Shown piece after piece: positions 3,686 to 48,118 of a stretch of DNA of 64,000 nt. The position numbers and the translations under genes are program-made. Positions within the stretch are counted from its first letter, which is position 1; every line of letters starts with the position of its first letter. The notes under the pieces were generated by a model that saw nothing but the letters and a program-made list of their open reading frames with translations, was not told where the DNA came from and did no database searches. The stretch lies in the NCBI RefSeq assembly GCF_003334785.1, contig NZ_QOWV01000001.1; one strand, given 5' to 3'. The DNA comes from Escherichia coli. Lineage in GTDB: Bacteria; Pseudomonadota; Gammaproteobacteria; Enterobacterales; Enterobacteriaceae.

Positions 3686-4573
3686 TTAATTAATGTCTAA
3701 TTCTTTTATTTTGCTCTCTTTGCGTACTGTCAGCGTAGACCCCATTGAAGCGGCGATGATAGCGCCGAGCGCCAGTAGCTGTATGGGTGTCAGTGTTTCT
3801 CCGAGGAAAATCATCCCGGAAACGGCAGCCAGCGCCGGTTCCATGCTCATCAGCGTACCAAATGTCCGTGTTGGCAAACGGGTGAGGGCAATCATTTCCA
3901 GCGAATAAGGCAGAGCGGTCGAGAGAATAGCGACAGCCAGACCCAATGGAATAACCGACCAGTGCCAGAGTGCTTCACCAGCCTGAAGCGCTCCAATTGG
4001 CACGAAAATTAACGCTGCAATCAACGAACCAATTGCCACCGTCGCAGGGCCATGTTCCGCTCCTGCGCGTTGCCCACTTAAAATGTAAATAGCCCAACAA
4101 GCCCCGGCCCCCAGTGCCAGCGCACAGCCGGTTAAATCGACATGGGAAACGTCTTGCCCCAGCGGTAGCAGGAACCACAGACCAAGAACCGCCAGCACAA
4201 CCCAGACGAAATCTACCGGGCGACGAGAAGAGAACAGCGCCACCGCCAGTGGTCCGGTGAACTCCAGCGCCACCGCAATACCCAGCGGTACTGTCTGAAT
4301 AGAAAGATAAAAAAGATAATTCATCCCACCCAGCGAAACGCCGTAAAACAACAGCGGTAACCGTTGCTCTTTGGCAAAGCGCAGTCGCCATGGCTTAAAG
4401 AACGCGATGAGGATCAGCGTTCCTAATGCCAGACGCAGCGCAGTGACACCCGGTGCGCCCACCAGAGGAAAAAGTGACTTAGCTAACGAGGCTCCACCCT
4501 GAATAGACGCCATGGCAACGAGCAATATGACTATTGGTAACCAGACCGGCATTTTACGTAATGAACCAGGCAT
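3686..4573 (-). CDS. rhtA: Threonine/homoserine exporter, DMT/EamA family
   Basis: Polytopic membrane ORF; start chosen at MPGSLRKMPVWLPIV (295 aa) inside the 299-aa track ORF. Confidence 0.9.
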   Translation of the reverse strand: MPGSLRKMPVWLPIVILLVAMASIQGGASLAKSLFPLVGAPGVTALRLALGTLILIAFFKPWRLRFAKEQRLPLLFYGVSLGGMNYLFYLSIQTVPLGIAVALEFTGPLAVALFSSRRPVDFVWVVLAVLGLWFLLPLGQDVSHVDLTGCALALGAGACWAIYILSGQRAGAEHGPATVAIGSLIAALIFVPIGALQAGEALWHWSVIPLGLAVAILSTALPYSLEMIALTRLPTRTFGTLMSMEPALAAVSGMIFLGETLTPIQLLALGAIIAASMGSTLTVRKESKIKELDIN

Positions 4574-4925
4574 CCTTTCTCCCACAAATATCTAGACTTA
4601 AGTAAAGCGTGGAGTGTACTGGATATACCCAATGCTGGTTGAGCATTTGTTGAAAAAATTTTCCCCCGTTTTGACTAAAATGCGCCAGGATTGATGGAAT
4701 CATTAGTCTGGTGATTAGGAATAATCTGGATGAATGACAGGGAAAACATGCGTAATACTTACGCAGTTCTCTGAAAAAGTGATTTAAATTTAGATGGATA
4801 GCGGTGTATGGAAACGTTCTGTTACATGAAATGGCCCGTTAGACATCACAAATCGCGAAGAGTTTCCCATTAATTTTTGATATATTTAAAACTTAGGACT
4901 TATTTGAATCACATTTGAGGTGGTT

Positions 4926-5441
4926 ATGAAAAAAATTGCATGTCTTTCAGCACTGGCCGCAGTTCTGGCTTTCACCGCAGGTACTTCCGTAGCTGCGACT
5001 TCTACTGTAACTGGCGGTTACGCACAGAGCGACGCTCAGGGCCAAATGAACAAAATGGGCGGTTTCAACCTGAAATACCGCTATGAAGAAGACAACAGCC
5101 CGCTGGGTGTGATCGGTTCTTTCACTTACACCGAGAAAAGCCGTACTGCAAGCTCTGGTGACTACAACAAAAACCAGTACTACGGCATCACTGCTGGTCC
5201 GGCTTACCGCATTAACGACTGGGCAAGCATCTACGGTGTAGTGGGTGTGGGTTATGGTAAATTCCAGACCACTGAATACCCGACCTACAAACACGACACC
5301 AGCGACTACGGTTTCTCCTACGGTGCGGGTCTGCAGTTCAACCCGATGGAAAACGTTGCTCTGGACTTCTCTTACGAGCAGAGCCGTATTCGTAGCGTTG
5401 ACGTAGGCACCTGGATTGCCGGTGTTGGTTACCGCTTCTAA
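4926..5441 (+). CDS. ompX: Outer membrane protein X (8-strand beta-barrel)
   Basis: 171-aa product with signal peptide MKKIACLSALAAVLAFTAGTSVA and C-terminal aromatic residue (ends YRF). Confidence 0.95.
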   Translation: MKKIACLSALAAVLAFTAGTSVAATSTVTGGYAQSDAQGQMNKMGGFNLKYRYEEDNSPLGVIGSFTYTEKSRTASSGDYNKNQYYGITAGPAYRINDWASIYGVVGVGYGKFQTTEYPTYKHDTSDYGFSYGAGLQFNPMENVALDFSYEQSRIRSVDVGTWIAGVGYRF

Positions 5442-5454
5442 TCACTTTGGTGAT

Positions 5455-5492
5455 ATAAAAAATCCGCCTCTCGGGGCGGATTTTTGTTTTTA
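5455..5492. terminator. Bidirectional rho-independent terminator between ompX and opgE
   Basis: Hairpin ATCCGCC-TCTCGG-GGCGGAT flanked by an A-run upstream and a T-run downstream. Confidence 0.7.
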
Positions 5493-7073
5493 AGGTTTCG
5501 GGTCGAAAATATCGGTTCCGAGATGGTTGTAATCCACCTTCTGTAACTGGAAGTTGGTGATGTATATCGGCCCGGCTTTCTTCTCAGATATAAACGGGTA
5601 TTTGATGTTAATTTCCTTCGCTTTAATCCCCGTCCACTGGGAGAAAAAGCCTAAGAAGTCATTGGCTGAGCGGCGGGCTTTAATCACACGATGCGCTTTA
5701 TCGTCGCTGGAAATGACCATAAAAGGCACCTGGAAATTTTGCTGATATTTATCATCATGGGCAAGGTATTGCACGTCTTTACCGCGCTCTTTAAAGGCCA
5801 GACCGTGGTCAGAAAAGTAAACCAGCGAGAAGCTGCTGCCGCTGTTGCGTAACTGATCGTACAGCTTGCGCAGTAAATCGTCCGTTTGCGTCATGGTATA
5901 GAGATAGCACGACGTTTCTTTCGATTGCACAAAGGTTTCGTATTTTCCTTGTGTCCTGTCGCAGGCCTGCGGATGTGAGCCCATCAGATGTAGAACAATC
6001 AGCTGCGGTTGCGAGTGCTCTTGCGCCAGCACTTGAGCGGTCATATCCAGTAACGCTTCGTCTTTGGTGTTTTTATCTGCTTCAAAATTACCTTCTTTCA
6101 GGAAGTACACTTCATCTGCTCGTTTGGCGATGCTGGCGATAGCGGTATCGTATTCGCCGATTTGACCCTGGTTGGAAAACCACCAGGTCTGGAAGCCCGC
6201 GCGATTTGCCAGGGTGACAAAGTTATCCTGAAACTGTGGTTTGCCATCGACAACGCGATTGAGCGTTAAGCCAAGCGATTTCTGCGTGGAGCCACTGGCG
6301 GCAATGTAGTCAGCAAATATCAAACCGTTAACGCTGCTGGCAAACGGGGTATTGTCCCAGTGACCGCCAAAGGCACCGAGGGCATCGCGACGCGCGCTTT
6401 CACCGATCACCACCACATAGGTCTGATACTTCGGCTTAACGGCAGTGACCGTCCAGGTATCTTTCATTCCGGAAAGTTTTGCCATCCGTTCTTGCTCTTC
6501 AATCACCTCGTTATTATTGACGATGACATCCTTAGCAAAACGAAATACCGGATAGCCAGTATCTTTCAGTTTAAATACGCCACCCCAGGCCAGGTTTTGC
6601 ACGGGAGCAACAAAAAATGTCGCCACACTGAATACCAGACACAGGCTGTCGAAGGTATTCCAGCGCGCTTTTTCATTCTCTTTTTTTCGCCTGATTGCTA
6701 TTACGCCGAGCGCAAAAATAAATAAGCCGACCAGGTAGCTGTACCACGGAAAAATCGTCAGGATTTCGGTCGACTCTTCCATATTGGTGGAGTGCAATGC
6801 CAGCAATGTATTGAAATTAGGCGCGCCGTAGGCCTGAGCAAAAGGGAAATAACAAGCCGCCACCAGCGAACTGACACCGACCAGAACTTTTTGTACGCGA
6901 GGCAATGTTCGCCATAGCAAAAGCAAAATAGCCGTAAACGCAGCGGTGTAGAGCAAACTGAAGGGGTAACCTAAGCCGAGGTTAATTAATAGCGACTGTA
7001 AAAAGTAGAACGCAGTCCACGGGCTAAATACCCGGCTACGGGTAACAAGCGATTCTTTGAGGGTTAAATTCAT
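5490..7073 (-). CDS. opgE: Phosphoethanolamine transferase for osmoregulated periplasmic glucans
   Basis: 527-aa ORF with N-terminal transmembrane segments and a C-terminal sulfatase-like domain; position matches ybiP/opgE. Confidence 0.88.
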   Translation of the reverse strand: MNLTLKESLVTRSRVFSPWTAFYFLQSLLINLGLGYPFSLLYTAAFTAILLLLWRTLPRVQKVLVGVSSLVAACYFPFAQAYGAPNFNTLLALHSTNMEESTEILTIFPWYSYLVGLFIFALGVIAIRRKKENEKARWNTFDSLCLVFSVATFFVAPVQNLAWGGVFKLKDTGYPVFRFAKDVIVNNNEVIEEQERMAKLSGMKDTWTVTAVKPKYQTYVVVIGESARRDALGAFGGHWDNTPFASSVNGLIFADYIAASGSTQKSLGLTLNRVVDGKPQFQDNFVTLANRAGFQTWWFSNQGQIGEYDTAIASIAKRADEVYFLKEGNFEADKNTKDEALLDMTAQVLAQEHSQPQLIVLHLMGSHPQACDRTQGKYETFVQSKETSCYLYTMTQTDDLLRKLYDQLRNSGSSFSLVYFSDHGLAFKERGKDVQYLAHDDKYQQNFQVPFMVISSDDKAHRVIKARRSANDFLGFFSQWTGIKAKEINIKYPFISEKKAGPIYITNFQLQKVDYNHLGTDIFDPKP

Positions 7074-42451: not shown

Positions 42452-42465
42452 AACAAAAAACCCAT
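42452..42465. repeat. Candidate attL core (left copy of 14-bp direct repeat)
   Basis: AACAAAAAACCCAT is identical to 54039-54052. Confidence 0.6.
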
Positions 42466-42484
42466 TTATGTAAACGGGTTAATG

Positions 42485-42521
42485 AAAACAATAAGTTAGG
42501 TTAAAAACAATAAGTTAGGTT
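42485..42521. repeat. Tandem 18-bp direct repeat (2 copies) next to the int 3' end; candidate integrase arm-type sites
   Basis: AAAACAATAAGTTAGGTT at 42485-42502 and 42504-42521, followed by TGGTGGT-CAG-TGGTGGT. Confidence 0.5.
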
Positions 42522-42539
42522 GGTGGTCAGTGGTGGTTA

Positions 42540-43592
42540 TTACGGGGTAATGCCAACCGCTGCCGCCACTTTGTCGCCACTTGGCAGCGTTGCCAGAGGA
42601 TTGAAACGGAGCGCCGTTTCTAGATGATCCGGTGCCAGATGTGCGTAACGCATAGTCATTTTTATATCGTGGTGTCCGAGAATTTTTTGTAAGGCCAGAA
42701 TGTTTCCACCCGACATCATGAAGTGCGCCGCAAACGTATGGCGCAGAACGTGTGTGAGTTGACCGCGAGGGAGCACGATAGACGTTTTTTCCATCACGGA
42801 TAAAAATTGAAAATAGCAGTCTGTGAAGAAATTGAACCCATCAAGCGCCATGATCTCTTCGTAAAGCTCTTTACTGATAGGGATGCTTCTGTTTTTCTTC
42901 CCCTTCGTTCTGACAAAGGTAATTCGGTATTTGGTCACCTGTGAGCGGGTAAGATTTACGGCTTCACGCCAGCGTGCGCCTGTGCTTAAGCATATCTTAA
43001 CTACCAGTGCCAGAATTGGGTCCTGACGTTTGCAATCAGCCAGCAATTCAACAATCTGCTCATGGGTAAGCCATGCCATCTCTTTTTCTGCGATGGTGAA
43101 TTTTCGCATGTTCTCCAGTGGGTTCGGATACGACCATTCGCCCAGACGGGATAGTTCGCTAAAAACACTACTTAGATAGCTTTGCTCCAGGTTAATGGTG
43201 ACCGGGCTTGCTCCTTTCTTCCATTTCTCGCTGAAGTAGATCTCGCCTGTCAGGCGTTTATCTCGATAGTGGGCAAACATTTTAGAGGTGAGATCGGTTG
43301 CAAGAGGATTGCCCAGAGCGTCAACCATCAACAGCAATTTGTCATAGACATGCTGCCCAGCTGTCAGAGATTTACCATGTAGTTTGAACCATAGCTCAAC
43401 CACGTCTTTCAGTGTTCGACGATCCACTGATTCACCCAGCCAGGGCTTTGCTTCGGTTTCTTCCATCGTGTGGCGCTCAAAAGCCAGTGCTTCGCCTTTG
43501 GTGGCGAATTGTTTACGCACACGACGCCCACTTCGTCCGGCGGGGTAACATTCGCAAAGCCATTTCCCTGTGGTTAGTTTTCGTACTGCCAT
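42540..43592 (-). CDS. int: Phage integrase, tyrosine recombinase (P2/186 Int-like)
   Basis: 350-aa ORF with catalytic signature STGARWREA, HVLRHTFAAHF and MRYAHL. Confidence 0.92.
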   Translation of the reverse strand: MAVRKLTTGKWLCECYPAGRSGRRVRKQFATKGEALAFERHTMEETEAKPWLGESVDRRTLKDVVELWFKLHGKSLTAGQHVYDKLLLMVDALGNPLATDLTSKMFAHYRDKRLTGEIYFSEKWKKGASPVTINLEQSYLSSVFSELSRLGEWSYPNPLENMRKFTIAEKEMAWLTHEQIVELLADCKRQDPILALVVKICLSTGARWREAVNLTRSQVTKYRITFVRTKGKKNRSIPISKELYEEIMALDGFNFFTDCYFQFLSVMEKTSIVLPRGQLTHVLRHTFAAHFMMSGGNILALQKILGHHDIKMTMRYAHLAPDHLETALRFNPLATLPSGDKVAAAVGITP

Positions 43593-43674
43593 AAAAAGCC
43601 CTCATATCAGAGGGCTAAATTTAACTGTATATGTAACCAGTAATCAATGTGTGATTACTATGAAACATACATTG

Positions 43675-45351
43675 CTAAGCAACATGTAGTTCATCGTTGG
43701 CGGAAGTGGCTGCTTTGCGCTCCTGCTCAATAGCTAGAGACTCTCTATATTCTTTCGCCTCTGCAAACATTGTCCAGTGGGCGTTGATGTTCATGTCTTC
43801 AATAACTGATTTGATTTCTTTTAAATTTACGTTAAAAAACTCTTTTCGTGAGTTAATTTTATTGACCTGCTTTTCGTTGAAAACTTTATGCAGATGGTTT
43901 TCTAATGATGGTGCATCATCACTATAAATCATCGCATGAACATCGAACGAAAAAGGAACACTAGCATCTCCGAGTTCACGAACACGATCAAGTGGTTCAA
44001 GGCGGCGTGTCATTCCAATTTTATATACATCTTCGCCAAATGAACCAATATTACTAATGATATAGACGTGGCCTGATCTGGTTTGTTGAGCCATAGAAAT
44101 AGCTCGTTGATTTTTAGCTTCAGCTTCTTCATATTTTAACTGTAGTTCAGCTATTTTTTGCTCTAAAGCTAAGCGTTGTTCTTCATTTGCAAGCATAAGT
44201 TCTTTCGTTGCTTTATTTATAGCTTGCTGAATAGCTTTTTCTTCTTTTTCAGCTTCTTTTATCGCTTTTTCATATTCTCTACGAGCTCTTTCCTCTTCAC
44301 GAAGCTGTTCTTTAATCCTTCTTTGCTCTTCTTTTTCTTCGAGCATAATTTCATTAACTGCTACACCCCATTTTAGCTCGTTGAGTCTTGCCTGAAGATA
44401 GATGTCACTTATTTTTGCGGACCTAAAGGCAGAGCCATTGTAATTTACTAGTTGAAATGCATCTTTTATTTCTTGGGAAAGTTTTCCAAAATTGTTGTGT
44501 TTGACTTTTGATAAAATACTGTCAACTCTTCCATTGAAGGCATCCAAAACAAAGTTTATGGCAGTATTACGCCTGTTTTGCTCAACATAATCACACGAAG
44601 CAGCTTTATTAGTTTTTATTAATGATTTGGTTAACTCTCTGGCTTTTTGTAATTCCTTGCCTGCATCTGTAAATTCATAATTTTCTGCCAGCTCATCAAG
44701 TACACTACGGTTAGGGATGATCCATTCATCACCATAACCTTCAATTTTATTTTTCATTGATTTTGCAACTGCTTCATATTTTTCTGCAAACTCTTTAGCT
44801 TCATATGCTGAACCAGCAATCTCCTTTGCTCTTTCTTCTGCATCAGAAATAATTTTTACTGCATTGTCATTAGCATTTGAGATTAGCTCATTTGCTTTAT
44901 TATTAGCATTATCAAGACGTTCTTTGGCTTTCAGGCGTGCATCGCGAGCGTCTTTGGTGATTGCTATAGCTTCGCTATTAGCGTTGCTTATTGTCATCTG
45001 AGCTTGATAATTTGCTTCGTTTACTGTTTTAGCCGCCTTAATTTGGGCTTCATCTATTTTTTGCTTGGCTATTGAGTCCGCATTTTTTATCTTATTCTCT
45101 GCATCCATTACTGCGCTGTGCAATTCTTCGTATTGCCACAATGGTGCTGCTCGCCCTTCAAGCTCTGATAATTCTCGTACGGTCTGTGCTAGTTTTTCTT
45201 GATTTTCAATCAGTTGGTTAGAAAGGGCTATGTTGTTAGCTGTCAGGTTATCTATAGCCGCTTTGTGTTTTTTACTTTGTTTAAATAATATTACAGCTAG
45301 AACAGGGGCGAGAAATGCTAATAAGAGTATAACGATGGCAAATGAATTCAT
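43675..45351 (-). CDS. Prophage accessory protein: N-terminal TM helix, long coiled coils, C-terminal GIY-YIG-like (T5orf172-type) domain; candidate anti-phage gene
   Basis: 558-aa ORF between int and the CI-like gene, co-oriented with both; AT-rich; hydrophobic N-terminus FAIVILLLAFLAPVLAVILF; K/E/A-rich heptad regions; C-terminal GHVYIISN...YKIGMTRR...E...N motif block. Confidence 0.8.
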   Translation of the reverse strand: MNSFAIVILLLAFLAPVLAVILFKQSKKHKAAIDNLTANNIALSNQLIENQEKLAQTVRELSELEGRAAPLWQYEELHSAVMDAENKIKNADSIAKQKIDEAQIKAAKTVNEANYQAQMTISNANSEAIAITKDARDARLKAKERLDNANNKANELISNANDNAVKIISDAEERAKEIAGSAYEAKEFAEKYEAVAKSMKNKIEGYGDEWIIPNRSVLDELAENYEFTDAGKELQKARELTKSLIKTNKAASCDYVEQNRRNTAINFVLDAFNGRVDSILSKVKHNNFGKLSQEIKDAFQLVNYNGSAFRSAKISDIYLQARLNELKWGVAVNEIMLEEKEEQRRIKEQLREEERARREYEKAIKEAEKEEKAIQQAINKATKELMLANEEQRLALEQKIAELQLKYEEAEAKNQRAISMAQQTRSGHVYIISNIGSFGEDVYKIGMTRRLEPLDRVRELGDASVPFSFDVHAMIYSDDAPSLENHLHKVFNEKQVNKINSRKEFFNVNLKEIKSVIEDMNINAHWTMFAEAKEYRESLAIEQERKAATSANDELHVA

Positions 45352-45371
45352 TTTAAAATCCTTTTACTATA

Positions 45372-45968
45372 TTAATTCGAGACTATTGTACTTCTTATAC
45401 AAGCAACCACTTCAATATCAGAAAATGCACATTCAAAGCTATTCTCTGCTGTTGTAATTTTAATCATTCCTTTAGGAAGCCTTGTGATTTTTCGAATGGA
45501 ATAGGTTCCGTCGATATTGATTAACCAGTTTCCATCAAGTACTTCAGAAAATTTTTGATCACAAATGTATGTGACGAGTCCATCCTGAACAACAATTGGT
45601 GATGAAAGGTTTGCAGGAAGAAATGATGAATCGAAGACATATGAACCGTCTTCAATCATTTTGCCTGCGGCAAGGCGAAACTTAACAAGCTCTTCTGTAG
45701 CTGCTGTCAGCGAGCTTTGCTTAAGGCCTTGTCCGGTAGTTAACCATTTGAGGGAGGTTCCTGTTTCAAGAGCACATTGGATTATCCAGTCAGCAGGAAA
45801 TGTATCCCGCAAATACCTGTTCGCTAGTGTGCTTTTTGATACTTCCAAGTGATCAGCTAAAGCCTGTCGTGTCGTAAAGCCATAGGCTTCGACTAATCGC
45901 TCAATCGCAGCCTTACCACCTTTATTGGGATTTATTTTGATCTCACTTGGGTACTTTGATGTTGACAT
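45372..45968 (-). CDS. cI: Phage immunity repressor (186 CI-like)
   Basis: 198-aa ORF with HTH region FTTRQALADHLEVSKSTLANRYL, transcribed divergently from the apl/cII-like genes. Confidence 0.8.
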   Translation of the reverse strand: MSTSKYPSEIKINPNKGGKAAIERLVEAYGFTTRQALADHLEVSKSTLANRYLRDTFPADWIIQCALETGTSLKWLTTGQGLKQSSLTAATEELVKFRLAAGKMIEDGSYVFDSSFLPANLSSPIVVQDGLVTYICDQKFSEVLDGNWLINIDGTYSIRKITRLPKGMIKITTAENSFECAFSDIEVVACIRSTIVSN

Positions 45969-46013
45969 ATCTCTTTTGCGATCCTAGTATCAGTTTTGTA
46001 CCCAATTGGGTAC
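45962..46013 (+). promoter_or_regulatory. Candidate rightward early promoter (pR-like) with palindromic operator
   Basis: -35 TTGACA (45962-45967), 17-bp spacer, -10 TAGTAT (45985-45990), then perfect 16-bp palindrome GTACCCAATTGGGTAC (45998-46013). Confidence 0.5.
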
Positions 46014-46063
46014 TTGTCACGATTACTACAGGCTCACCACAAGCCAATAGGAGATGTTGCATC

Positions 46064-46285
46064 ATGACCCCTAACATTTCAATAACTCTGAATACGCCAC
46101 ACGTCACAATCGAGCGTTATAGCGAACTTACTGGTCTTTCAATCGACACAATCAACGATATGTTGGCGGATGGTCGCATTCCTCGGCATCGTCTTCGTAA
46201 AGACAAGAAAAGAGAAAAGGTAATGATCAACCTTGCTGCTCTTACCGTTGATGCACTTACTGATTGCAATGTTGTATTCAACTAG
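46064..46285 (+). CDS. Small DNA-binding switch protein (186 Apl / P2 Cox-like)
   Basis: 73-aa [35 protein letters not shown] with HTH-like segment, first gene of the rightward operon; GGAGA RBS. Confidence 0.65.
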
Positions 46286-46317
46286 TTCCATTTTGGGATA
46301 CATCAGAGGTGTCGACC

Positions 46318-46827
46318 ATGTTTGATTACCAAGTTTCCAAACATCCACATTTTGATGAAGCCTGTCGAGCATTCGCACTGCGCCACAATCTGGTGCAACT
46401 GGCAGAACGTGCGGGCATGAATGTGCAGATTCTGCGGAACAAGCTGAACCCAGCTCAACCTCATTTATTAACCGCACCAGAAATCTGGCTGCTTACCGAT
46501 CTGACTGAAGATTCAACGTTGGTAGATGGTTTTCTGGCACAGATTCATTGTCTGCCATGTGTACCGATTAATGAGGTAGCAAAAGAGAAACTGCCGCATT
46601 ACGTCATGAGCGCAACTGCAGAGATCGGGCGTGTTGCAGCAGGTGCGGTATCTGGTGATGTAAAAACTAGTGCCGGTCGTCGTGATGCTATCAGCAGCAT
46701 TAACTCTGTAACACGACTGATGGCGCTGGCTGCTGTTTCATTGCAAGCCCGTTTACAGGCTAATCCTGCGATGGCGAGTGCAGTTGATACCATGACTGGC
46801 CTTGGTGCTTCATTCGGTTTGCTGTGA
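46318..46827 (+). CDS. cII: Phage regulatory protein CII (186 CII-like)
   Basis: 169-aa product [45 protein letters not shown]... resembling 186 CII as I recall it; GAGGTG RBS 7 nt upstream. Confidence 0.8.
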
Positions 46828-46834
46828 GGTGTTT

Positions 46835-47131
46835 ATGCTGACGAAAGAACCATCATTTGCATCGCTGCTGGTAAAACAAAGCCCGGCAATGCACTACGGT
46901 CACGGCTGGATCACGGGTGAGGATGGAAAACGCTGGCATCCATGTCATTCACAAGATGAATTGCTGTCTGAATTGACCACGAGGAAACGGAGAAAGTCCA
47001 AATGTATGCGGCAGAAAGTGAAGTGGTTTATCAGTTTCGTTACAGAGGGGAGAGTTATTCAGTACCTGAAGATGATTTGCTCTGTTGCTATCCGTCATTG
47101 TCGGGCGATGGCAGTTACTTTTTCACGTTAA
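46835..47131 (+). CDS. Hypothetical small early protein; 3' end uncertain
   Basis: ATG with GAGGTG RBS; the last 130 nt overlap the next ORF in another frame and look less protein-like. Confidence 0.45.
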   Translation: MLTKEPSFASLLVKQSPAMHYGHGWITGEDGKRWHPCHSQDELLSELTTRKRRKSKCMRQKVKWFISFVTEGRVIQYLKMICSVAIRHCRAMAVTFSR

Positions 47132-47226
47132 AGGATGGGACGTTTTTACGGGGAGAGCAGGTTAAAGAGACGATACGAAAAAATGTATCTCCTCTTGAGC
47201 GTTACCGTAAGAACAAAGAACGATAG
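47002..47226 (+). CDS. Hypothetical small early protein
   Basis: 74-aa ORF MYAAESEVVYQFRYRGESYSVPEDD... with GGAGAAAG RBS. Confidence 0.55.
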   Translation: MYAAESEVVYQFRYRGESYSVPEDDLLCCYPSLSGDGSYFFTLKDGTFLRGEQVKETIRKNVSPLERYRKNKER

Positions 47227-47248
47227 CTGCGTTTGGGGGATATGAAGT

Positions 47249-47590
47249 ATGGCAATTAATGGCGCTGCAGCAACTGTTCCATTAAGCCCCGGTGAACGCC
47301 TGAATGGACTTAATCACATTGCGGAGTTAAGGGCGAAAGTTTTTGGCCTGAATATTGAGTCAGAGCTTGAGCGGTTTATTAAAGATATGCGTGATCCACG
47401 GGATATCAATAATGAACAAAATAAACGGGCACTGGCTGCCATATTCTTTATGGCAAAAATTCCAGCTGAACGTCATAGCATCAGCATTAATGAGCTGACC
47501 ACTGACGAAAAGCGGGAGCTGATTAAAGCAATGAATCATTTTCGTGCAGTGGTGAGCTTATTTCCCAGACGGCTAACCATGCCGAATTAA
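47249..47590 (+). CDS. Hypothetical phage early protein
   Basis: 113-aa ORF with purine-rich RBS, co-directional in the early operon. Confidence 0.6.
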   Translation: MAINGAAATVPLSPGERLNGLNHIAELRAKVFGLNIESELERFIKDMRDPRDINNEQNKRALAAIFFMAKIPAERHSISINELTTDEKRELIKAMNHFRAVVSLFPRRLTMPN

Positions 47591-47657
47591 CCAACTAATG
47601 AAATTAATGGCGTAAACCCGCCGGGCATCCCTTTATCTAAATTCAGGAGAATTGATT

Positions 47658-47891
47658 ATGCGTAATATTGAAACCCTCACGACTAAAACCGGACCGGATG
47701 ACGCAGGGCTTAATATTTTACTGACAGAGGCTCGTCTGGAAGAACGCCGGGCAAGGGCTGAAGCAATGGCTGCTCGCCTTGATAGCCTGGCGTGTCATAT
47801 CTCATCCCGCCAGCTAAACCACGTGGAAGCGGCAGAACTGCTGCGCGTGACTGCTGAAGCAATCCAGAACGAAGCGCAGGAGATCCACTAA
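47658..47891 (+). CDS. Hypothetical phage early protein (P2 orf80/81-like position)
   Basis: 77-aa ORF from ATG with AGGAGA RBS (the track's TTG start at 47652 is rejected); stop overlaps next start. Confidence 0.6.
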   Translation: MRNIETLTTKTGPDDAGLNILLTEARLEERRARAEAMAARLDSLACHISSRQLNHVEAAELLRVTAEAIQNEAQEIH

Positions 47892-48118
47892 TGGCTGATG
47901 CAATGGATCTCGTACAGCAGCGCGTTGAAGAAGAACGCCAGCGCCATATCCGTGCAGCCCGTGCCAAATCACCGGGCGTGTCACGCGTACTTTGCATTGA
48001 ATGTGAAGCGCCAATTCCGCCAGCACGACGCCGCGCCATTCCGGGAGTGCAGCTTTGCATTACCTGTCAGGAAATCGCAGAACTGAAAGGCAAACATTAC
48101 AACGGAGGTGCTGTATGA
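47891..48118 (+). CDS. TraR/DksA-family C4 zinc-finger protein
   Basis: 75-aa ORF with CIECEAPIP...CITCQ four-cysteine motif; translationally coupled to neighbours. Confidence 0.75.
   Translation: MADAMDLVQQRVEEERQRHIRAARAKSPGVSRVLCIECEAPIPPARRRAIPGVQLCITCQEIAELKGKHYNGGAV

Follow-up and report, generated by a model that had tools for sequence, protein, structure and literature searches.

Organisation of the locus

The window is the whole 64,000-nucleotide stretch of Escherichia coli DNA that was analysed. Within it, three genes on one strand form the locus under study:

42540..43592, minus strand: int, gene for a tyrosine integrase (350 aa), last gene of the operon and conserved anchor of the slot (PHROG 1, E=6e-75)
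43675..45351, minus strand: gene of the SNIPE / PD-lambda-1 family (558 aa; ORF list, PADLOC, PHROG, Pfam, RefSeq)
45372..45968, minus strand: gene for a CI-type repressor (198 aa), gene 1 of the lysogenic operon (PHROG 4, transcriptional repressor, E=6e-30)

The product of cI is annotated as 'phage repressor protein CI'. The 1.68-kb ORF between the repressor and integrase genes is separated from cI by 20 bp (45352-45371) and from int by 82 bp (43593-43674), exactly as the initial annotation had placed it. It starts with ATG, and an AAGGA Shine-Dalgarno sequence lies 7 nt 5' of this codon. The ORF had also been described as AT-rich relative to its flanks. This holds on the side of int, where the GC content of int and beyond is 0.45–0.50 against 0.34–0.40 for the ORF, but not on the side of cI (0.33–0.44). 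The low-GC tract includes cI and the AT-richness therefore extends past the ORF.

The host element is a decayed 186-like (P2-family) prophage, an 11.6-kb deletion remnant at rybB, with the following landmarks:

42452..54052, no strand: boundaries of the prophage remnant, given by the 14-bp direct repeat AACAAAAAACCCAT at 42452-42465 and 54039-54052 (repeat search)
54039-54117, minus strand: RybB sRNA (Rfam, 105 bits)

The second copy of the repeat forms the 3' terminus of the rybB sRNA gene; a search for tRNA genes returned none. The deletion junction of the window, which joins gpA to the tape measure gene, was found in 0 of 5426 complete E. coli genomes, so that either the remnant is unique among these or the junction is an assembly artefact. 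The operon of cI, the 558-aa ORF and int has been kept in two independently reduced prophage remnants, and the ORF is full length, with 100% nucleotide identity to copies in intact prophages.

Assignment to the PD-lambda-1/SNIPE family

The profile search that had been proposed as a check returned Pfam T5orf172, MUG113 and DUF4041 together with the PADLOC PD-Lambda-1 model PDLC03976 (E=2.4e-120), residues 106-550 being aligned to positions 36-481 of the 491 in the profile. A second PADLOC model, PDLC03977 (E=7.9e-117), and PHROG 1847 (E=6.6e-133) matched as well, and RefSeq copies 100% identical to the protein are named 'DUF4041' or 'SNIPE associated domain-containing protein'. The domain order DUF4041, T5orf172, MUG113 is the one given for PD-lambda-1 in the supplement of Vassallo et al. 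Residues Y430, R449, R450, E484 and N497 are conserved in 63–64 of 64 homologs. There is no obligatory partner gene, the neighbours being cI and int in both E. coli and Klebsiella, and a 53%-identical homolog is situated amid unrelated cargo genes. Judged by its sequence, the 558-aa protein clearly belongs to the PD-lambda-1/SNIPE family.

This family was founded on PD-lambda-1 from ECOR26 (Vassallo et al. 2022, PMC9519451), later renamed SNIPE, a membrane-tethered nuclease that cuts phage DNA during injection, with ManYZ and the tape measure protein as its guides (Saxton et al. 2025, bioRxiv 10.1101/2025.11.03.685801). DNA and the tape measure protein are both ligands of its DUF4041 domain, and replacement of E414 by Ala abolishes defence. 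A single N-terminal transmembrane helix is present in SNIPE and 59% of its homologs. The N-terminal region differs in length among homologs and shows little conservation, and has been proposed to act as a specificity adapter (Saxton et al. 2025, 10.1101/2025.11.03.685801). Substitution W257R retargets SNIPE to Bas14-type tape measure proteins, and the wild type confers weak, broad, ManYZ-independent defence against most siphoviruses. PD-Lambda-1 defence has been independently validated in Streptococcus thermophilus, where two homologs of 98.5% identity differ completely in activity.

The full-length PADLOC match and these published experiments on the family favour the earlier view of the ORF as a candidate anti-phage accessory gene. 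Family, architecture, defence phenotype and mechanism are all already published and the gene is not new. The suggested novelty, that no characterised function was known for this architecture, fails because SNIPE has exactly such an architecture and its function has been characterised.

Architecture of the protein

Five regions can be distinguished in the protein, listed here from the N-terminus:

45283..45342, minus strand: predicted N-terminal transmembrane anchor, residues ~4-23, followed by the basic stretch KQSKKHK (Kyte-Doolittle)
44740..45282, minus strand: helical stalk, residues 24-204, in the SNIPE family the variable 'adapter' region (AlphaFold2 helices 4-179 and 181-204)
44407..44709, minus strand: globular DUF4041 domain, residues ~215-315 (Pfam PF13250; AlphaFold2 elements 217-306)
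44086..44406, minus strand: linker coiled coil, residues 316-422 (AlphaFold2 helices 316-387 and 390-422)
43792..44073, minus strand: GIY-YIG (T5orf172/MUG113) nuclease domain, residues 427-520 (Pfam)

These regions agree with what had been read from the letters alone. The one N-terminal hydrophobic helix described at residues ~4-23 is the sole hydrophobic segment of the protein, 19-residue Kyte-Doolittle windows exceeding 1.6 at starts 1-9 only, and the hydropathy pattern of the N-terminus is that of ECOR26 SNIPE. The protein is thus predicted to sit in the membrane, and the topology of its anchor may be read from the positive-inside rule and, by analogy, from the PhoA-LacZ mapping of SNIPE. 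In the AlphaFold2 model (mean pLDDT 85.7) helices 4-204 and 316-422 correspond to the two heptad stretches noted earlier, and the order of transmembrane helix, stalk, globular domain, helix and small alpha/beta domain is the elongated architecture described for SNIPE. The central region, initially likened to DUF4041, contains the Pfam core of that domain at residues 267-322 (PF13250; nt 44386-44553; E=3.1e-12); among the precomputed Pfam labels retrieved by contig look-up, PF13250 carries the label 'SNIPE'.

At the C-terminus, the proposed T5orf172-type GIY-YIG domain was recovered by Pfam as T5orf172 (residues 427-520, E=8.1e-17) and MUG113 (443-520, E=1.9e-19). The peptide quoted for it, GHVYIISN...HAMIY, comprises residues 427-476 (nt 43924-44073) and falls within the block given as ~43807-44100. 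The codon of the predicted catalytic Glu, E484, is at 43900-43902. A homing-type GIY-YIG endonuclease was considered as an identity for the protein and rejected, a transmembrane anchor and DUF4041 being present and a homing-endonuclease DNA-binding module being absent from the Pfam matches.

Structure and profile comparisons beyond these families gave little. Foldseek with the whole AlphaFold2 model returned nothing significant from the PDB; the top non-coiled-coil match was the GIY-YIG nuclease Slx1 (E=0.25, 72 columns), weak because the entire elongated model served as the query, and the remaining matches were helical bundles. Searching PDB sequences with a profile brought up no solved structure of SNIPE, only weak matches to the helices of ATP synthase subunit b and cytochrome b562. 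The stalk gave weak DivIVA and ATP-synthase subunit b matches. No family-specific model was found in NCBIfam, where only coiled-coil noise (DivIVA, V-ATPase subunit E, SMC) appeared, far under the curated cut-offs.

Comparison with ECOR26 SNIPE

As the reference for comparison we used ECOR26 SNIPE (RCP76574.1, 500 aa, from phage PhiR26_1), verified by the presence of 9 out of 9 residues named in the SNIPE paper. Both proteins are encoded by single, prophage-borne genes and share a transmembrane helix, a stalk, DUF4041, a long linker helix and a C-terminal GIY-YIG/T5orf172 domain. BLASTP aligned residues 265-555 at 50% identity (E=5e-77). The similarity is unevenly distributed: the nuclease domain is 70% identical and the linker 48%, whereas the DUF4041 region (residues 200-330) is 18% identical and the stalk, barely alignable, 14% over 93 aligned columns. 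The catalytic Glu is common to both (E484, equivalent to E414 of ECOR26 SNIPE). The position of W257 in SNIPE is occupied by K327, a place where 50 of the 64 homologs have K or R. The 558-aa protein is longer by 58 residues and its stalk by ~70. The genomic settings differ as well: ECOR26 SNIPE is a separate gene in opposite orientation between ren and rha of a lambdoid prophage, unlike the present ORF within the cI-int lysogenic operon of a 186-like prophage.

Since the stalk and DUF4041, the targeting regions, are only 14–18% identical, the ManYZ dependence and lambda specificity of SNIPE are not transferable to the 558-aa protein. Likewise, the unlike activities of the 98.5% identical S. 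thermophilus homologs mean that activity of the present allele is not assumable from its sequence.

Expression signals

The following putative signals were found around the three genes:

43593..43674, minus strand: 82-nt spacer with two hairpins (terminator-like match; MFE −30.3 kcal/mol, z=−5.2 against shuffles)
45962..45990, plus strand: pR-like promoter TTGACA-17-TAGTAT, facing the cI start (promoter scan)
42459..42480, minus strand: terminator-like hairpin and T run 3' of int, overlapping the attL core (terminator scan, repeat search)

A crude sigma-70 scan revealed no minus-strand promoter-like site for the 558-aa ORF within cI or the gap. No convincing terminator was found within cI or the 20-bp gap, the terminator-like match inside cI (45657..45629) having a weak stem and no real T run. 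The 20-bp gap, the lack of a promoter-like site of its own and the lack of a convincing terminator between the genes suggest that the ORF is co-transcribed with cI. Most likely it is expressed from the lysogenic promoter on a single transcript with cI and int, which probably ends at the hairpin at 42459..42480. On a single lysogenic transcript, the protein is therefore predicted to be constitutive in lysogens and in the present prophage remnant.

The passage into int seems to be more elaborate. The second hairpin of the spacer (43616..43597, then a U run) ends 4 nt 5' of the int AUG and holds the sole SD-like GAGG for int; with a terminator-like hairpin ahead of int, operon transcription would be more than simple read-through. 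Searches of Rfam returned no known RNA in the operon. The switch of phage 186 consists of convergent pR and pL promoters, with which the placing of the pR-like promoter agrees; pL was not located by the promoter scan.

The slot between cI and int

The int gene was found in 1135 of the 5426 complete E. coli genomes, and 164 of these 1135 carry the SNIPE gene. On the int side, homology begins at window positions 43650-43672, immediately past the SNIPE stop codon. The cI side shows no conservation at the DNA level; the cI allele switches with the cargo, and the allele of the window was matched within E. coli in the 164 SNIPE-gene genomes only. Of five sampled genomes without SNIPE, three have defence-type cargo in the slot and two only a ~63-aa ORF; the closest SNIPE-less relatives, such as ATCC 8739, have a 63-aa ORF alone in the slot. 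The alternative cargo comprises Old (E=5.6e-234), a KAP/PDC-S20 NTPase (E=4e-82) and an AriA-like AAA ATPase (E=4.5e-23).

The 558-aa SNIPE gene is accessory prophage cargo. The initial annotation had named a conserved core gene of P2/186-like phages as the finding that would overturn it; the 164 carriers among 1135, and the other defence genes sharing the slot, show the opposite. With its cargo turning over beside a conserved int and rich in defence genes in the small sample of five genomes, the slot has the features of a defence hotspot.

A comparable defence hotspot between cI and int has been described in K139-like, P2-related Vibrio prophages (Rousset et al. 2022, PMC9122126). In both, a P2-related temperate phage has variable cargo, rich in defence genes, flanked by its CI repressor and integrase genes, but the E. 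coli slot belongs to another host family and another phage lineage. For P2, the published hotspots comprise a gpA-portal slot with tin/old and a Z/fun slot, and we did not find the cI-int slot of 186-like prophages from E. coli among them (Rousset et al. 2022, PMC9122126; Vassallo et al. 2022, PMC9519451). Among the megablast matches to int, phage 186 was missing. We advance it only tentatively, at odds rather against it, that the cI-linked 558-aa subtype in 186-like prophages across Enterobacteriaceae is a distinct SNIPE lineage directed at another entry route or tape measure class, and that its slot is a third, not explicitly described hotspot of the P2 family.

Discussion

We interpret the 558-aa ORF as a single-gene anti-phage system of the PD-lambda-1/SNIPE type, carried as accessory cargo in the cI-int slot of a 186-like prophage, and give this reading a probability of about 0.85. 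By homology to the ECOR26 protein, the membrane tether would hold the GIY-YIG nuclease off the chromosome. Upon phage injection, stalk and DUF4041 would engage the incoming DNA and the tape measure protein, and possibly also an entry factor in the host inner membrane. Cleavage of the phage DNA by the nuclease would follow at the membrane and leave the cell alive, the defence being direct rather than abortive infection.

How far the phage range resembles that of ECOR26 SNIPE is a separate matter. A true SNIPE member may have diverged in stalk and DUF4041 such that it docks to a different entry factor or tape measure class, its targets possibly including competitors of P2-like phages. The stalk and DUF4041 identities of 14% and 18%, the ~70 additional stalk residues and the adapter role proposed by Saxton et al. 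for the N-terminal region all point this way, as does K327 at the site of the W257R substitution, by which SNIPE is redirected to tape measure proteins of the Bas14 type. However, wild-type SNIPE is already broad, ManYZ-independent and weak against most siphoviruses, so that divergence need not alter the target class; we consider an altered specificity possible, at less than even odds.

It is improbable that the intact gene is silent or inactive here, as a relic of the decaying prophage or as an allele without activity. The prophage survives only as a deletion remnant, near-identical PD-Lambda-1 homologs can lack activity, and AT-rich genes of E. coli are frequently silenced by H-NS. Against this stand the full-length ORF, nucleotide-identical to the copies in intact prophages, its intact catalytic residues and the operon retained in two independently reduced remnants, which fits its maintenance. 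The same intactness in decayed remnants argues against a selfish homing-type GIY-YIG endonuclease or nuclease toxin that spread into the prophage without benefit for host defence. Although T5orf172/GIY-YIG domains are known from phage homing endonucleases and the AT-rich gene lies at a sharp homology breakpoint, the protein matches over its full length a family whose defence function has been demonstrated, and the cI-int slot also accommodates other defence genes; this explanation is very improbable.

The interpretation as a SNIPE system places the gene beside several known systems. Like the predicted expression of the SNIPE gene, that of the prophage exclusion genes lambda rexAB and P2 old/tin/fun takes place in the lysogen, and rexAB is co-transcribed with the repressor gene, as seems to apply here. 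None of these is related in sequence to the 558-aa protein, and Rex is an abortive-infection, membrane-depolarising system in contrast to the direct-defence nuclease SNIPE. Zorya, Kiwa and HK97 gp15 resemble SNIPE in acting at the inner membrane, where phage DNA is injected or close by. However, Zorya and Kiwa each comprise several proteins and sense perturbation of the envelope, unlike single-gene SNIPE, and HK97 gp15 blocks injection without a nuclease; none of the three has a domain in common with the 558-aa protein except weak coiled-coil noise.

PADLOC, Pfam and PGAP already label the exact protein, and its identification carries little weight as a discovery. As a natural SNIPE variant with a very different stalk and DUF4041, it could be used to test how both regions set phage specificity. 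Its location inside the repressor-integrase operon would tie defence to lysogeny, and the intact operon in independently eroded remnants fits domestication of a defence gene by the host.

The SNIPE-family gene between cI and int

The lysogenic operon of the decayed prophage contains the following features.

43675..45351, minus strand: SNIPE-family ORF, 558 aa, ATG start (ORF call)
45372..45968, minus strand: CI-type repressor gene (cI), 198 aa, upstream of the SNIPE ORF (PHROG match and RefSeq annotation of identical DNA)
42540..43592, minus strand: tyrosine integrase gene (int), 350 aa, downstream of the SNIPE ORF (PHROG match and RefSeq annotation of identical DNA)
42480..42459, minus strand: terminator-like hairpin with T run, 3' of int

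The intergenic gaps are 20 bp (cI–ORF) and 82 bp (ORF–int). GC content is 0.34–0.40 in the SNIPE ORF vs 0.45–0.50 in int, and cI also lies within the AT-rich tract. Only one hydrophobic segment is present in the protein (residues ~4–23), followed by KQSKKHK. The initial annotation had described the coordinates, strand, neighbours, gaps, AT-richness and N-terminal helix of this ORF, and every element was confirmed. It had also expected a GIY-YIG/T5orf172 domain and possibly DUF4041, which was borne out by a Pfam search returning DUF4041 (residues 267–322, E=3e-12), T5orf172 (427–520, E=8e-17) and MUG113 (443–520, E=2e-19).

Both PD-Lambda-1 models of PADLOC were matched over nearly their full length (E=2.4e-120 and 7.9e-117). 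PHROG 1847 was matched too (E=6.6e-133). RefSeq labels the identical copies of other E. coli genomes ‘DUF4041 domain-containing protein’ or, where the record is newer, ‘SNIPE associated domain-containing protein’, and precomputed Pfam labels obtained by contig look-up name PF13250 ‘SNIPE’. The family is large, comprising 3368 clusters (50% identity) at E<=0.001 and 1409 at E<=1e-30. Judged by these matches, the gene is a member of the PD-lambda-1/SNIPE defence family, which is experimentally characterised and already annotated. The earlier guess of a candidate anti-phage gene was correct.

PD-lambda-1 was discovered in a functional selection in which E. coli fosmid libraries were challenged with lambda (Vassallo et al. 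2022, PMC9519451) and renamed SNIPE by Saxton et al. (bioRxiv 10.1101/2025.11.03.685801). According to the latter study, SNIPE cuts phage DNA during injection, defence is lost in the nuclease mutant E414A, and the protein without its anchor becomes toxic via host DNA cleavage. Within the BASEL set it protects against siphoviruses, not myoviruses or podoviruses, and mutations in DUF4041 redirect it towards particular tape measure proteins. Streptococcus thermophilus homologs defend as well, yet two at 98.5% identity differ in activity.

Comparison with ECOR26 SNIPE

The characterised 500-aa reference from E. coli ECOR26 is the product of a 1503-bp CDS annotated PD-lambda-1 in Escherichia phage PhiR26_1; each of the nine residues that the paper names (E223, N250, L253, W257, E264, K305, I308, T319, E414) is present in it, which verified its identity. 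BLASTP against the window protein gave 50% identity over residues 265–555 (E=5e-77). Identities per region were computed in a 64-sequence family alignment.

Identity of the window protein to ECOR26 SNIPE by region (64-sequence alignment)
TM region: 23%
Stalk: 14%
DUF4041 region: 18%
Linker helix: 48%
Nuclease domain: 70%

In this alignment the catalytic E414 of SNIPE corresponds to E484 of the window protein, and Y430, R449, R450, E484 and N497 are kept in 63–64 of 64 sequences. The position of W257 is occupied by K327 in the window protein and by K or R in 50/64 homologs, Trp being found, within the alignment, in ECOR26 only; this agrees with the remark of Saxton et al. that W257R-like states are common (bioRxiv 10.1101/2025.11.03.685801). 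An AlphaFold2 model (mean pLDDT 85.7) predicts a helix (4–204), a small globular domain (~215–315), a second helix (316–422) and an alpha/beta domain (427–520), an elongated architecture like that described for SNIPE. By sequence, the stalk and DUF4041 domain are far from those of the studied ECOR26 protein.

The ECOR26 gene, at 4071–5573 of the lambdoid prophage PhiR26_1 (PV340555.1), is flanked by ren and a rha-like gene and oriented opposite to these neighbours. The accessory (‘moron’) slots used by the SNIPE family hence differ between unrelated temperate phages.

Inferred expression of the lysogenic operon

A promoter scan of cI and the cI–ORF gap revealed, on the strand of the SNIPE ORF, no promoter-like site for it. 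Inside cI there is a single terminator-like match, which is weak and has no real T run. A Shine-Dalgarno sequence (AAGGA) is located 7 nt 5' of the ATG. The 20-bp gap, this ribosome-binding site and the lack of an own-strand promoter-like site in cI or the gap argue that cI and the SNIPE gene share one transcript, started at the lysogenic promoter. Pointing towards the start of cI is a strong pR-like promoter (TTGACA-17-TAGTAT), the convergent arrangement known from phage 186.

With an MFE of −30.3 kcal/mol (z=−5.2), the 82-nt SNIPE–int spacer (43593–43674, minus strand) is predicted to form two stable hairpins. The second resembles an intrinsic terminator (stem and U run), ends 4 nt 5' of the int AUG and sequesters the sole SD-like GAGG for int. 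Prophages with other cargo conserve it together with the int leader, and it may cause transcription attenuation or possibly mask int translation in the lysogen.

Distribution and the cI–int slot

Of 5426 complete E. coli genomes, 164 carry the SNIPE gene, always as a single chromosomal copy, and 1135 carry int. Where the SNIPE gene is missing, homology begins right after its stop codon (window 43650–43672). Five such genomes were sampled for the content of the slot.

Alternative content of the cI–int slot in the sampled genomes
Old-family nuclease: PADLOC Old, E=5.6e-234
KAP P-loop NTPase: PDC-S20, E=4e-82
AriA-like AAA ATPase: E=4.5e-23
Single small ORF of ~63 aa, nothing else

From these counts and the alternative cargo we conclude that the SNIPE gene is accessory and that the slot behaves as a defence hotspot. 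The cI allele varies together with the cargo, the 198-aa cI being seen only alongside the SNIPE gene. A 53%-identical homolog resides within a larger cI-to-int block with six other genes. K139-like Vibrio prophages, which are P2-related, were previously reported to have a cI–int hotspot (Rousset et al. 2022, PMC9122126). Hotspots published to date for E. coli P2 are the gpA–portal and Z/fun slots (PMC9519451; PMC9122126).

The E. coli 186-like prophages with Old, KAP/PDC-S20 or AriA-like cargo in this slot sit at rybB/rcdA. Between int and the attachment site (int–rcdA) there is a further small cargo site, with a Panacea-domain protein and a hypothetical protein, or a DUF2971 protein.

In E. 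coli AR_0085 the SNIPE gene belongs to a complete 186-like prophage adjoining rcdA, where the genes run apl, cI, SNIPE, int; two phage records, vB_EcoM-813R9 and Klebsiella phage KP12, and Klebsiella genomes show this arrangement too. The classical P2 gpA–portal hotspot of the AR_0085 prophage (locus L001, 9203–12154) holds a three-gene ‘ABC-three component system’ and an ATP-binding protein. With its SNIPE gene, which is identical to that of the window, this one prophage thus carries at least two defence cargos.

Prophage decay and retention of the operon

The window prophage is a remnant flanked by the 14-bp direct repeat AACAAAAAACCCAT (42452–42465 and 54039–54052). Its attL copy forms the terminator-like hairpin just 3' of int. 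The copy at 54039–54052 makes up the 3' end, and so the terminator, of rybB, an sRNA gene (Rfam RybB, 54039–54117, minus strand), and thus the 186-like phage integrates into the rybB end and rebuilds the gene.

Homology to the intact AR_0085 prophage ends at window 50270, within the replication gene gpA. Here an ORF of 1034 aa (48969..52073, plus strand) joins, in frame, an N-terminal segment of the replication endonuclease gpA with a C-terminal segment of a tail tape measure protein, which indicates deletion of the head, terminase, lysis and most tail genes. The junction (near 50270) was found in 0 of the 5426 complete E. coli genomes searched. A smaller, independent remnant in E. coli SCU-118 (NZ_CP051716.1, 11023–15429) is reduced to ogr, a truncated cII, apl, cI, SNIPE and int, and suggests repeated prophage decay sparing the lysogenic operon. 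That the operon has stayed intact in two elements which decayed independently is compatible with selection for the repressor–defence module but does not prove it.
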